A stretch of DNA of 64,000 nucleotides from an uncultured candidate division Zixibacteria bacterium (GTDB taxonomy: Bacteria; Zixibacteria; MSB-5A5; UBA10806; 4484-95): the NCBI GenBank assembly GCA_963668625.2, contig CAXXKA010000006.1, positions 160,001 through 224,000 on the forward strand, in the 5' to 3' direction. The notes beneath the pieces are model-generated. The model was not told where the DNA came from. It searched no databases and saw only the letters and a program-made list of their open reading frames with translations. The translations under genes were made by a program, and so were the position numbers. This document shows positions 34,152 to 38,950 of the stretch, in pieces; position 1 is the first letter of the stretch; the number at the start of each line of letters is the position of its first letter.

Positions 34152-35201
34152 ATGAGATTAACAAAGTTTTTAACGGTAACATTCCTAGCTGTTTTATTAC
34201 CTGTGTCTCTGACTTTCGGGCAAACCGGAACATCCGCTCAGAAACCTGCGGTGGCGAAACAAAAAGCGACTATCGAGGACGCGAGTAAATCGAAAGATAG
34301 AAATCCTGTTATTTCCAGGTCAAAAAAGCAAGAACCTGAACCGGAAATACCACTTTCTGATGCCAGAATCGCGTTTGAGTATTCAAAGTTTGATTTCGGC
34401 ACGGTTCCGAACGGCGCCCAGATGACACATTATTTCCCGGTCACGAACATCGGGCCGGATACTCTGTATATTACAAAAATCAAAGCTGGGTGAGGATGCA
34501 CTACGTCAAAAGCGAGCGGGATAGTTATTCCGCCAGGAGATAGCGCCTTAATAGATGTTTCTTATCGTTCATCTAAATCGACTAAGAATACCAGGCGCAT
34601 AACCAAGCGTATCAGCGTTCACTCGAACGATTCCTCGAATCCTGTGGCCAGCCTGACTATTCAAGCCCAGGCTAATATGTCGGAATCCGTGTTAAAATGG
34701 AATCCTGACAAGGCTGAATTCAATCAGGTACTTATCGGTAAAGGTGATAAGTTCAAACTCGAACTCCAGAACACCGATAGCACCGATATAAGGCTTGAGG
34801 TCGTAAGCGAACCTGATCCGCAAATCGTTAAAAAGTATAAAATAAAGAAAGATAAACTCAAACCCAATCAGACTACCGAGATTGAGTTCGAATTGAGAGA
34901 AGATTTACCTCCGGGAGTTTTCAAAACGACCTTAACCGCCCAGATAGAGGGTAGTGGCTCTAACAGGTTCTCGATACCTATTACCGGCACTGTGGTTGAG
35001 AAAATTAGCCCGGAAAAACCGGTGGCGGCCTCTCACAAAAAACCGCCCGCAAAGAAGAGCAGCAATGTTAAATCAGGCAAAAAATTTGACCCTAATACCG
35101 GCATACAGGTTAAAAAACCGGTCGTTAATGATAGGGCCGAATCGAAACCTGCTACACAAACTATACCGCTCTCCACTATCGACGATTCTGATCTCAAATA
35201 A
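34152..35201 (+). CDS. Exported DUF1573/Ig-like protein, predicted selenoprotein (Sec at TGA 34491-34493; 349 aa)
   Basis: ORFs 34152-34493 and 34644-35201 are in the same frame with only the TGA between them; reads IKAG-U-GCTT and aligns with IKPG-C-GCTT of the next paralog. Confidence 0.85.
34516..34533 (+). promoter_or_regulatory. Candidate bacterial SECIS element
   Basis: GCGGGAT-AGTT-ATTCCGC hairpin, separated from the TGA by 22 nt. Confidence 0.75.
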
Positions 35202-35228
35202 TCTTTATCTTAAATTCACGAAATTAGT

Positions 35229-35253
35229 AAACCGGTCTTATGGCCGGTTTTTT
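35229..35253 (+). terminator. Intrinsic terminator between paralogs 1 and 2
   Basis: AAACCGGTC-ttat-GGCCGGTTT followed by a T-run. Confidence 0.7.
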
Positions 35254-35349
35254 GTTATCGGTATTTTCCCGTCATTTTCAGTTTTAGCTCAATTGAGGTT
35301 CATAACATTTCATTAAGTATATTCGATTTTTAACGGAAGGAGTAAAACG

Positions 35350-36267
35350 ATGTACGGACGTATCAATTTCATGATTTGCTTGATTGCTGTGCTGGTTCTA
35401 TCGAGTGGTGTTCAGGTCTCTTTCGGCCAAACAGCGAAAACAAGAACCAAACCCCTCACGAAAACCAAATCCAAAATTGTAACTCAAAAAGATAAATCTA
35501 CCCCGGAGATACCCCCGAATAATTCAACGATCACTTTCGATCATGAGCAGTTCGATTATGGTGTCGTGCCCAGGGGAGAGCAAGTTACGCATCATTTCCC
35601 CGTGAAAAATACCGGTACCGATACATTGACGATTACCCGGATTAAACCCGGATGCGGTTGTACGACCACCCGTAAGAGCAGTATTGTGCTGCCTCCCGGT
35701 GAAAGTTCGCTGATAGATATCACTTATCGATCCTCAAAATCAGCGAGATCGGGGCATAAGGTTACCAAGAGAATTCGCATAGAATCAACCGACTCGCAAA
35801 AACCTACCCTGCAACTTTCGATTTCCGCCCGTACCGACACAGCGGATTGTATGTTAAGATGTCGCCCGGAGATGGTTGATTTGGGCGAGGTTTTAATAGG
35901 TAAGGATGATAAATTCGAGGTTGAAATAACTAACATCGATTCTCTGAAGTCGGAGATTATGGTGGTCAGTGAGCCGACTTCCGAATTCATAAAAAAGTTC
36001 AAGATCAAGAAAGACAAATTAAAATCAGATCAGAAAACGAAAATCGAATTTCAGCTTCAGGATAATATTCCTCCGGGCGAATTCAAAACGGCTCTTACTA
36101 TCGAGGCGAATAACGATTCTAAATCTCGTATCTCCATTCCGATTCATGGCAAAATAGTCGAATCATTTAGCGAAAAGAAAACCAGCAAAGCCGGGCAGGA
36201 GATGTCGTCATCGGCCGTTAGCGGCCACCCTAAAGTATCTACCGTTGACGATTCGGATTTAAAGTAG
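35350..36267 (+). CDS. Exported DUF1573/Ig-like protein, Cys (CGC) paralog
   Basis: Signal peptide; FDYG, F.VKNTG..L.I..IKPGCGCT, LPPGES. Confidence 0.9.
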   Translation: MYGRINFMICLIAVLVLSSGVQVSFGQTAKTRTKPLTKTKSKIVTQKDKSTPEIPPNNSTITFDHEQFDYGVVPRGEQVTHHFPVKNTGTDTLTITRIKPGCGCTTTRKSSIVLPPGESSLIDITYRSSKSARSGHKVTKRIRIESTDSQKPTLQLSISARTDTADCMLRCRPEMVDLGEVLIGKDDKFEVEITNIDSLKSEIMVVSEPTSEFIKKFKIKKDKLKSDQKTKIEFQLQDNIPPGEFKTALTIEANNDSKSRISIPIHGKIVESFSEKKTSKAGQEMSSSAVSGHPKVSTVDDSDLK

Positions 36268-36415
36268 AGTGATATCGAGAACATACATTTTAAATCCATA
36301 GAACTAGCCGGGTTTTCTTTATTTTTAGCTGTTCACACGACAGTTTTTACATTAAATTCGGTGAAGGAAAACAGGAGGTGGATATCGTTAGTAATCGTTC
36401 GAGGGATAGAGCTAA

Positions 36416-37171
36416 ATGATGAATAAGATTATCCCGGTTTTAAAGTCAATAGTCATGGTGTTTGCGATGGTCGGAGCGTCTATGGCTCAAAACTCCGGTA
36501 ATGAAATTACTGCCAACTCGACGGTTGATGCGGTCATTAATTTCGAACACATGGAATTTGATTTTGGAGCGATACCGCCGGGCGCCGGGGTTGCGCACGA
36601 ATTTTCCGTAAAAAACGAGGGCTCGGACACCCTTGTCATTCATCGAATTAAACCCGGCTGAGGTTGTACGACTTTAGATAAGAGTGCGATAGTTATCGCG
36701 CCGGGCGAAAGTTCTGAGATCGGAATTATTTATAAAGCGCCGAAAACCGACAAATATATTGGCAAGCAAAGAAAAAGGATAACGGTTTATTCCAATGATC
36801 CGGTTAATCCGGTACTTGCTATATATATAGCCTCTTCAGTTAACAGACCTGATATGCCTTTTGCAGTCGAGCCTGCCGAGGTTGATTTCGGCGTGGTGAT
36901 GGCCGGCGAATCTAAAACCCGGACGGTTACGATTGCAAATGTGAGTCAACTGGATTTGAGTCTGTTGGCTATCGATGAACCTGATGATATCTTTATAAGT
37001 GATTATAAGTTACAGTCTGCTGATTTAAAGTCCGGTCAGTCGACAGCATTAAGTATTACTCTTCAAAGTGAACACGTAGTCGAGGAATTCGTTACCTCTA
37101 TTACGCTCGAGACAAGCGGGCAATTCGCCAAACGCTTATCGATTCCGATTCATGGCATGATCGTGAAATAA
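36416..37171 (+). CDS. Exported DUF1573/Ig-like protein, predicted selenoprotein (Sec at TGA 36659-36661; 251 aa)
   Basis: ORFs 36416-36661 and 36854-37171 are in the same frame; reads IKPG-U-GCTTLDKSAIVIAPGES...ITVYSNDP with no other stop. Confidence 0.85.
36684..36701 (+). promoter_or_regulatory. Candidate bacterial SECIS element
   Basis: GTGCGAT-AGTT-ATCGCGC hairpin, separated from the TGA by 22 nt. Confidence 0.75.
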
Positions 37172-37363
37172 TCATCCTCCAAAATTAATTAACATACAAC
37201 TATAGGTAATATAGACAGCCTATATTTCTAATATATGAGTTAATTTCTGCATTGTTGCATTCCTGTTAAGAGGGTGAACGTTTTGATGGAAGGTAATGTA
37301 TCTGCGAGCATTCTTTCCGAAAATAAAAACAAAGAAACATCAGAGATGAAATTGGAGGAAAGG

Positions 37364-38950
37364 ATGAGAACTATTAAACTCCTTGCTGTGGCCGTTATTA
37401 CTATTTTGATTTGTGCCACAACAGTCAATGCCCAGGGTTTTTCCTCGCTTATAGAGAAGCTGGATCAACTTGAAGCCAAATTGGCCGAACTGGAGAATTC
37501 ACAAAAACAGGATGTTGCCAATTTAAAGAAAGAGTTGGCCAACTCACCGAAAGGCGCTAATAACTCTGAAAGCCAGGCCGCTATCAAGAAGATGTCGTCC
37601 AAGCTGGATGCTATGAACGCTGAGCTGACCGAGGTGAAAACAGGTTCCGAGAAGATACAAGCTAACTATGATATGTTGATGGCCGAGCTATTAGAGCTTA
37701 CTTACGCTCTCAAACAGACTATGAAGGAACAGGACGCGACCGGTCATAAACCTGCTTATCGCGCCGAGGTGTCATCGCCCAAACCGATGTCGAGCCAGGC
37801 GCCGAAATCCGAAAAATCGGCTAAACCTATCTCGAATGGTGAGCCGTCCCTGAGTTATCAGCCGTATGGTTATATCAAACTTGACGGTTCTTACGATCAG
37901 AATTTGACCAGCCACGGTAATTTCGCAATGTGGGTGAAGCCAAAATCTTATGAAAAAGATGATGAGCAACTGAACATGACCGCCAACCAGAGCCGCCTCG
38001 GATTTAAAATCGATAGCCAGAATTATGGCGAATATAAGCTTCATGGGCAGTTCGAGGTTGACCTCTATGCCAGTGTCTCCGGTGGAGTGGCCGAGAACAA
38101 GGGAATGTTCCAACTTCGTCATGCGTTTTTCTCGATAGAAAAAGGTAACACCAAACTACTGGCCGGCCAGTATTGGGACCTTTACAGCCCATTAAATCCC
38201 TCTACCATTAACTATCCGGTGCTCTGGGGCGCCGGTAACACCGGTTACCGTCGCGCGCAGATTACGCTGGCTCAGTCATTCTCTATGGGAACGCAAACTA
38301 CGGGCACGCTTTCCGGCGGCGCGTTCCGTACTATCGGTTCTGATTTGACTCCGACGCTCGAGTGGAGCCTCGAGGATTCCAGCGAAACCTCCGATGGCGA
38401 GGATGACGGCACCGATGCCGGTATTCCCACGGTTCAGGGAAGGCTCGATATCAATCACAGTTTCGCTTCAGGTTCAAAACTGTTGGTGGGTGTTTCCGGT
38501 TTATGGGGCCAACTCAAGGCCGAGACCAATCGCGGCAACAACAACACTTACGAAAGTTGGGGTGTATGCGGCCATATGAAATGGTCGTGGAGCAAATTCG
38601 GTTTGGCCGGTGAATATTACAGCGGCTCGAACCTCGGATCCTATTTCGGCGGTATACTCAATTCGAGCACTATAGACGGCACCAATGCGCAAGGTGGCTG
38701 GGGATTCGCCTGGATAAAGACCTCACCCAAGACGAAGCTCGGATTCGGTGTAGGCAACGATACGGCTAAAGAGGAGGATATCTCCTCCGGCAGCCGTCTG
38801 AAAAATCAATCGATTTTCGGTAATATCAATTACTCGATAGTCAAGAACGCTACTGTTGGCCTCGAGCTCTCTCAGTGGCAAACAGAGTATAAGGATGGCG
38901 AGACCGAGAAGAGTTTCCGCGCCCAGACAGCTTTCACGTTTAGTTTCTAA
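37364..38950 (+). CDS. DcaP-like outer-membrane porin with N-terminal coiled coil
   Basis: Signal peptide, coiled coil, YGYIKLD, TANQSRLG, FEVD, LRHAF, LAGQYW, C-terminal F. Confidence 0.78.
   Translation: MRTIKLLAVAVITILICATTVNAQGFSSLIEKLDQLEAKLAELENSQKQDVANLKKELANSPKGANNSESQAAIKKMSSKLDAMNAELTEVKTGSEKIQANYDMLMAELLELTYALKQTMKEQDATGHKPAYRAEVSSPKPMSSQAPKSEKSAKPISNGEPSLSYQPYGYIKLDGSYDQNLTSHGNFAMWVKPKSYEKDDEQLNMTANQSRLGFKIDSQNYGEYKLHGQFEVDLYASVSGGVAENKGMFQLRHAFFSIEKGNTKLLAGQYWDLYSPLNPSTINYPVLWGAGNTGYRRAQITLAQSFSMGTQTTGTLSGGAFRTIGSDLTPTLEWSLEDSSETSDGEDDGTDAGIPTVQGRLDINHSFASGSKLLVGVSGLWGQLKAETNRGNNNTYESWGVCGHMKWSWSKFGLAGEYYSGSNLGSYFGGILNSSTIDGTNAQGGWGFAWIKTSPKTKLGFGVGNDTAKEEDISSGSRLKNQSIFGNINYSIVKNATVGLELSQWQTEYKDGETEKSFRAQTAFTFSF

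Follow-up and report, generated by a model that had tools for sequence, protein, structure and literature searches.

Two probable selenoproteins of the DUF1573 family flank a cysteine-form paralogue in a Zixibacteria genome

The question raised by this locus is whether two in-frame TGA codons in a row of three related genes are stops, as gene callers treat them, or codons for selenocysteine (Sec). The window, i.e., the whole stretch of 64,000 nucleotides (nt) analysed here, comes from an uncultured bacterium of Candidatus Zixiibacteriota (GenBank assembly GCA_963668625.2, contig CAXXKA010000006.1, positions 160,001 to 224,000), and the three genes lie on its forward strand between positions 34152 and 37171. 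Under genetic code table 11 this region is read as one intact gene of 305 amino acids (aa) and two genes broken by the gene callers at an in-frame TGA. Gene 1 (34152-35201) falls into an open reading frame (ORF) of 113 aa at 34152-34493 and a separate downstream ORF, which become a single frame of 349 aa when the TGA at 34491-34493 is read through. Gene 2 (35350-36267) is the intact one and has TGC at 35653-35655, and gene 3 (36416-37171) gives a product of 251 aa across its TGA at 36659-36661. Both TGA codons align with the TGC of gene 2, and the contexts are IKAG-U-GCTT, IKPG-C-GCTT, and IKPG-U-GCTT in genes 1, 2, and 3, respectively. These tandem genes, their coordinates and codons had been proposed in an earlier note on the stretch, and were confirmed by our ORF reading. 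All three proteins passed the Pfam gathering threshold of 26.1 bits for DUF1573 (PF07610), with 83.4 bits for gene 1 (E 1.2e-23, residues 73-172), 86.3 bits for gene 2 (E 1.5e-24), and 94.8 bits for gene 3 (E 3.3e-27). DUF1573 is the first of two immunoglobulin-like (Ig-like) domains in each protein; a HYDIN/VesB-like Ig model was matched as well, and the Pfam and NCBIfam matches extend across the TGA. In gene 1 the signal peptide is followed by a Lys-rich linker, by the two Ig-like domains and by a tail that is rich in Lys and has DDSDLK as its last residues. Gene 2 has the same architecture and C-terminus, while gene 3 consists of the signal peptide and the two domains, without linker or tail. 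All three N-termini are basic, then hydrophobic, then followed by Q; the signal peptides were called by eye and from a helix at residues 6-21 in an AlphaFold2 (AF2) model.

The genome from which the window comes (10 contigs, 4.3 Mb, 95.9% complete) encodes the machinery for Sec insertion. The search for selA, selB, selC and selD proposed by the earlier note gave hits above the curated cut-offs in every case. On contig C1, selD, selA and selB are contiguous (G000:C1:154251-158454), with selA at 467.8 bits, selB adjoining it at 347.9 bits, and selD just upstream of selA at 353.8 bits. This selD has one in-frame TGA and is probably itself a selenoprotein gene. A second selD (405.1 bits, G000:C8:1138152-1139072) lies inside an open frame of 739 codons and may be fused to another domain. 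The tRNA-Sec scored 68 bits, and its anticodon, tca, was confirmed by ARAGORN. TGA is also in ordinary use as a stop: of the 32 ORFs in the window that reach 250 aa or more, 9 end with it, and several orthologues of the three genes terminate with TGA at the conserved C-terminus. These data bear on the idea that the UGA is read through as something other than Sec, either by near-cognate Trp or Cys insertion or by a genome-wide reassignment. Such reading would agree with the open frame and with the indirect nature of the evidence on the inserted residue; it is at odds with the use of TGA as a terminator, with the presence of a dedicated tRNA-Sec, selA, selB and selD, and with the Cys found at this position in all other homologues inspected, which makes a classical Sec/Cys pair. 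We regard it as very improbable.

Homologues of the gene 2 protein were found in 60 of the 61 genomes searched, and additional TGA codons in the longer matches were terminal stops. A search with the PF07610 domain only, in 31 related genomes, returned by hand count 105 matches above the Pfam cut-off. Exactly one TGA was present in 38 of them and in one match below the threshold, and TGA-bearing matches occurred in 29 of the 31 genomes, the exceptions being G008 (88% complete) and G024. In all 39 TGA-bearing domains the TGA stands at the same alignment position, that of the first Cys, giving U-G-C in 38 cases and U-G-V in one. Over all loci inspected there were 44 distinct U-G-C genes vs 20 C-G-C genes, L079 being a duplicate of the L032 gene. 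The motif itself was invariant in an alignment of 34 sequences, with U treated as C, as expected from the earlier claim that CGC is the conserved motif of DUF1573. A further locus search with an alignment of six sequences gave 109 Cys and 7 Sec forms; its patterns contain CGCT, so the counts are biased and were left unused, and one of the seven (L116) looks spurious.

The frame stays open after the TGA, and the conservation continues. For the one orthologue pair with unsaturated synonymous sites (G057-G034), the ratio of nonsynonymous to synonymous substitution rates (dN/dS) was 0.110 before the TGA and 0.117 after it. Gene 1 and its orthologue in the same-genus relative G001 are 39% identical upstream and 59% identical downstream of the TGA, with dS saturated. 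Judged by these comparisons, purifying selection acts on the part of the gene that follows the TGA. Nor do the TGA codons look like sequencing errors. A contig of run X1, which is identical across the whole stretch and may be the source of this DNA, and contigs from a second run of the same sample (X2) span both TGA codons and show no difference there. One contig of a further run (X5), from a sediment metagenome of another study, spans 36429-36694 and with it the gene 3 TGA, and its sole listed difference is at 36515.

Downstream of the TGA in both genes 1 and 3 there is a hairpin resembling a Sec insertion sequence (SECIS), with its onset 22 nt after the TGA. In gene 1 (34516-34533, forward strand) it has a stem of 7 base pairs (bp), GCGGGAU / AUUCCGC, closed by the loop AGUU, with a local minimum free energy (MFE) of -8.8 kcal/mol; it is recovered in the MFE structure as well as in the centroid, and encodes S-G-I-V-I-P-P. 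The hairpin of gene 3 (36684-36701, forward strand) has the 7-bp stem GUGCGAU / AUCGCGC, the same loop and a local MFE of -8.9 kcal/mol, and is found in the centroid structure. Pair 4 changes from G:C in gene 1 to C:G in gene 3, accompanying a change from Gly...Pro to Ala...Ala in the protein. Over the 13 Sec genes of the subclade the helix is 95.6% paired, and three of its seven pairs vary on both sides. Pair 2, which links the third positions of two codons, occurs as CG (5 genes), AU (4), UA (2) and UG (1), with a single mismatch. The covariation score was 0.324 vs 0.122 in shuffled alignments, none of 500 of which reached this value, and at most 0.104 in controls with a slid partner; RNAalifold predicted the same helix. 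Local folding energies of nt 23-47 ranged from -6.9 to -9.2 kcal/mol in 14 of 14 Sec genes of the subclade type, vs a mean of -2.4 kcal/mol in the 20 Cys genes. The hairpin covaries and is specific to the Sec forms, and recruitment of SelB by it is predicted.

Other subclades of Sec-type DUF1573 genes (L056-L086, from relatives G003-G030) have, by eye, different conserved hairpins after the TGA. In 17 genes of this set there is an invariant hairpin of 16 nt with loop GGUC about 50 nt downstream, after a GC-rich helix encoding A-P...L-A-P. Elsewhere the stem is one of 6 bp closed by the loop GGU, or is of the C5/G5 type. From this comparison of the genes, one protein family may well use several SECIS types. 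Bacterial SECIS elements are stem-loops immediately 3' of the UGA, and distinct classes exist, according to the part of a recent review that treats them (PMC9312934).

If the TGA codons were plain stops, genes 1 and 3 would be broken or would make only N-terminal products of 113 and 81 aa. The gene callers indeed split both genes, and the closest public proteins are C-terminal fragments beginning after the TGA. Against this stand the TGA at one and the same codon in 39 of 39 domains from 29 genomes, the downstream frame, which is open and conserved as strongly as the upstream part, the covarying hairpin in the Sec forms only, and the full Sec machinery in the genome. We consider this explanation, too, to have a very small chance of being right. 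Since selD-selA-selB and tRNA-Sec are present, the hairpin covaries, the codon is the same in all 39 domains, selection acts downstream of it and the TGA codons are kept in other sequencing runs, we conclude with high confidence that genes 1 and 3 are genuine selenoproteins; the wider statement, which also includes their decoding by SelB through the hairpin, is held nearly as firmly. In the process envisaged, SelB loaded with Sec-tRNA(Sec) would be recruited by the AGUU-loop hairpin, which lies inside the coding sequence and spells G/A-I-V-I-P/A, and Sec would be inserted at the first position of the invariant C-G-C. The claims of the earlier note that these TGA codons are Sec codons aligned with a conserved Cys, that the frames remain open and conserved behind them, that they are not errors of sequencing, and that the organism has both Sec versions (genes 1 and 3) and a Cys version (gene 2) were all borne out.

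Several points weigh against this assignment. For genes 1 and 3, the incorporation of selenium and their expression are predictions from genomic data. Genes 1 and 3 are themselves saturated in dS, as is gene 2, and gave no dN/dS of their own. The hairpin is short, and folding z-scores in windows of 70 nt were ordinary, -0.67 and -1.10. No relevant Rfam family matched the hairpin region. Its fit to the published bacterial SECIS model, with a G in second place of the loop and about 30 nt from the UGA, depends on what we take to be the limits of that model.

The family to which these proteins belong is a known one, and the suggestion in the earlier note that it was hidden or uncatalogued did not hold. 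A DUF1573 domain-containing protein (PF07610) with the motif UGC is listed in the tables of prokaryotic selenoproteins of two reviews (PMC9312934, 2022; PMC13188914, 2026), both citing Zhang and Gladyshev (2007; PMC1976440). The 2007 paper, as far as its available text goes, describes OS_HP2 with two selenoproteins, one from the delta1 and the other from the delta4 symbiont of Olavius algarvensis, and zero Cys homologues, and states a hairpin downstream of the TGA for all its new families. The word DUF1573 is absent from that text; OS_HP2 appears to be the DUF1573 family, as indicated by the review tables and by the title "OS_HP2 family (seleno)protein" given to NF041425 in NCBIfam. This model was the best NCBIfam match of genes 1-3, covering positions 2-97 of 98 with E values from 1e-20 to 2e-23. 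Against a simple membership, the scores of 73.3, 82.4, and 76.9 bits for genes 1, 2, and 3, respectively, are below the curated cut-off of 100. Twelve other Zixibacteria Sec forms scored 50-86 bits, likewise under the cut-off, and genes 1-3 are relatives outside the curated boundary of NF041425.

The likeness to OS_HP2 concerns the domain, the position of Sec, the U-G-C motif and the downstream hairpin, whereas the hosts differ, being Deltaproteobacteria for OS_HP2 and Candidatus Zixiibacteriota here. The forms differ in number as well, with two Sec and no Cys proteins given for 2007 (PMC1976440, available text) and many of both in Zixibacteria. The Cys forms of DUF1573 known from Bacteroidota, Planctomycetota, Verrucomicrobiota and Zixibacteria share with genes 1 and 3 the domain, the invariant C-G-C-T and the signal peptide, and those of the Zixibacteria relatives also the architecture of two Ig-like domains. 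Gene 2 and a fourth paralogue of this genome are of this kind, while genes 1 and 3 are set apart by Sec at the first Cys and by the hairpin after it. Genes 1 and 3 are therefore new, divergent and so far unannotated members of a known family, forming a divergent branch in Candidatus Zixiibacteriota, and not a new system. Literature searches with DUF1573, OS_HP2, and Zixibacteria together with selenocysteine brought up neither a study of function nor a description of such proteins from Zixibacteria. Among public proteins, those closest to gene 1 are C-terminal pieces whose first residue lies beyond the TGA, along with a few full-length Cys forms; the orthologue of G001 is deposited as such a fragment, a "hypothetical protein" of a Zixibacteria metagenome-assembled genome. 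The curated NF041425 model would miss the Zixibacteria Sec forms. Because gene callers break or shorten these genes, and because they score below that cut-off, the selenoproteome of Zixibacteria is under-counted. What is known of Sec decoding is unchanged by these genes.

The history of the three genes was followed in a tree built by maximum likelihood from 34 full-length relatives, one row of 180 aa having been dropped for length. Two label changes are needed to place the Sec and Cys states on it. One clade of 15 rows holds 14 Sec forms and gene 2, and the remaining 19 rows are all Cys forms. Gene 2 falls in a subclade with support of 95/97, which it shares with gene 1 and with the Sec orthologues of two same-genus relatives; gene 3 also belongs to the Sec clade, on a branch so long (1.73) that its exact placement is unsure. 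Gene 2 also has a hairpin (35676-35695, forward strand) at the same offset as those of genes 1 and 3. At -6.9 kcal/mol this is the most stable among the 20 Cys-form genes, probably the remnant of a SECIS. In the two relatives from the same genus there is only one Sec copy at this locus or in this clade, with no tandem Cys copy within 1.4 kb, and a distant Cys paralogue elsewhere. As read from tree and hairpin, the simplest history would be that a Sec gene was recently duplicated and that TGA then changed to TGC in gene 2, with its SECIS now decaying.

Such an origin is compatible with gene 2 serving as a Cys back-up, and does not imply regulation. A stronger proposal, made in the earlier note, would be a switch by selenium supply, in which expression alternates between the two Sec genes and gene 2, the Cys form serving when selenium is scarce. 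Selenium-regulated pairs of Sec and Cys isoenzymes are known in Methanococcus, and the recent conversion of a copy standing between two Sec genes would suit the proposal. So would an intrinsic-terminator-like hairpin of 9 pairs with the tail TTTGTT, located 3' of gene 1 (35229-35250, forward strand), since the genes may be transcribed separately; this element is a match to the consensus only. On the other hand, no regulatory element was identified, promoter-like sites being no commoner than in shuffled sequence (9 found vs 8.6 expected), and the same-genus relatives manage with a single Sec copy and no Cys copy in tandem. We judge the switch to be unlikely.

What the U-G-C site does, for which the earlier note had proposed a redox or metal activity, was approached through its fold. 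The AF2 model of gene 3, built on the 34-sequence alignment, had a predicted local distance difference test score (pLDDT) of 89.9 and a predicted template modelling score (pTM) of 0.79, and gave two beta-sandwich domains at residues 41-142 and 149-250. U82-G-C84 is placed in the tight turn between strands 73-80 and 85-87 of the first domain. Positions C82, G83 and C84 show no variation, and the His at position 61 (H61) is retained in 90% or more of the 34 sequences. Foldseek matched the model to ASH domains of the HYDIN/CFAP type, to CEP192 SPD-2, to RbmA and to the uncharacterised structure 2qsv; a profile search of solved structures gave HYDIN-type Ig domains and a weak match (E 1.6e-7) to 2qsv, which is an uncharacterised protein of P. 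gingivalis. The all-beta fold of two Ig-like domains and the UxC motif place the proteins outside the thioredoxin-fold class, and scans of genes 1-3 against Pfam and NCBIfam gave no thioredoxin-like family.

Sec/Cys pairs usually mark catalytic redox residues, and from the occurrence of such a pair at one position we infer a catalytic redox role for it here. The products would be exported by way of their signal peptides and would consist of two beta-sandwich domains of the Ig-like (ASH/PapD-like) type, DUF1573 coming first. U-G-C would alternate between a selenol/thiol state and a selenenylsulfide formed within the molecule, and its substrates, outside the cytoplasm, would be thiols, sulfane or similar compounds. 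There are known redox motifs with which this may be compared: Erv2 has a C-G-C shuttle disulfide, Mia40 a C-P-C and thioredoxin reductase a G-C-U-G. They, too, have two chalcogen residues adjacent or one apart, which could form a small Se-S or S-S ring, and Sec and Cys are interchangeable in them; DUF1573 differs in being an extracytoplasmic Ig-like sandwich without a flavin or partner domain. We hold this redox mechanism tentatively, at slightly below an even chance, by analogy with such proteins. Some observations count against it. The fold lends the redox role no support, as Foldseek returned structural Ig and ASH domains only, and the sequence and profile searches of solved structures gave no homologue with the motif. 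The gene neighbours in the window are uninformative as to function. The U-G-V paralogue (L085, G025:C2:12106-12869) keeps Sec and the G-I-V-I-P-P hairpin region, while its second Cys, the proposed resolving one, is gone, which fits poorly with an obligatory Se-S cycle; in this protein either Sec is able to work alone or the copy is decaying.

The same site could instead bind a soft metal such as Cu, Zn or Hg, perhaps together with the near-invariant His on a neighbouring strand, or it could be a covalent carrier of sulfane sulfur or selenium similar to SoxY, whose Cys likewise sits on an Ig-like carrier. The conservation of C82, G83, C84 and H61 would agree with either version, as would a sandwich fold without likeness to thioredoxin-type oxidoreductases. 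MerT-like proteins, a heavy-metal ATPase and metal-binding UxxU proteins stand among the selenoproteins in the tables of the same reviews (PMC9312934, PMC13188914). The gene context of the Cys forms points in the same direction. The fourth paralogue of this genome, a Cys form on contig C1 (G000:C1:439105-439755; L021 1135-1911, minus strand), lies directly downstream of a gene for a pyridoxal phosphate (PLP) enzyme of the cysteine-synthase / cystathionine-beta-synthase family, with an HDOD-domain gene on its other side. This arrangement was present in 16 of 29 loci of relatives (L027-L055), 15 with a Cys form and one with a Sec form (G005, L031), and the pairing with the PLP enzyme is met again in several families of the class. 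It may reflect sulfur or selenium metabolism, or plain synteny. The metal or carrier reading is weakened by the usual redox meaning of Sec/Cys pairs and by the absence of the cysteine-synthase neighbour at the window locus, and we think it rather unlikely, less so than the switch by selenium supply.

A broader picture can be drawn, in which a near-universal and unannotated family of exported Sec-DUF1573 proteins exists in the class of Candidatus Zixiibacteriota that includes this genome, with SECIS types specific to subclades and an ancestral PLP partner resembling cysteine synthase. The U-G-C on its Ig scaffold would then be a novel type of extracytoplasmic relay or carrier of chalcogens (S/Se) and not thioredoxin-like, and the tandem genes a set responsive to selenium. 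This combination is speculative, and we give it a low probability, under that of the switch taken by itself. Apart from it, the use of Sec for the first residue of C-G-C suggests that this is the working residue of DUF1573, a domain widespread in the Fibrobacteres-Chlorobi-Bacteroidetes (FCB) and Planctomycetes-Verrucomicrobia-Chlamydiae (PVC) groups. The DUF1573 proteins are among the few bacterial selenoproteins predicted for export by the Sec translocon, and the adjacent Sec, Cys and Sec copies make a natural set for biochemical comparison of selenium with sulfur.

Some minor observations were made on the surroundings of the genes. The sequence D-D-S-D-L-K ends both gene 1 (35178-35198) and gene 2 (36244-36264), behind Lys-rich tails of low complexity. 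It was considered as a general sorting signal and rejected, as only genes 1 and 2 end so among the ORFs of at least 100 codons in this genome; database relatives from other sources have C-termini of the types ...DDSDLK or ...DDSDMPN. Just downstream of gene 3 there is an ORF of 558 aa (37274-38950) with an N-terminal hydrophobic segment, a coiled-coil-like stretch, a C-terminal half rich in Gly, Ser and Tyr and a final F, by which it resembles an outer-membrane barrel. It had no significant Pfam family, and did not adjoin the DUF1573 orthologues in relatives. Upstream, on the opposite strand, lies a divergent operon resembling succinate dehydrogenase/fumarate reductase, with FAD, Fe-S and CCG-domain subunits, and this operon also adjoins the orthologue in G001, G002, and G009. 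Several of the DUF1573 loci closest to the window (L087, L090, L091 and others) come from records titled "uncultured Ignavibacteria bacterium"; since the records nearest to them carry the title Candidatus Zixiibacteriota, the bins have probably been mislabelled.

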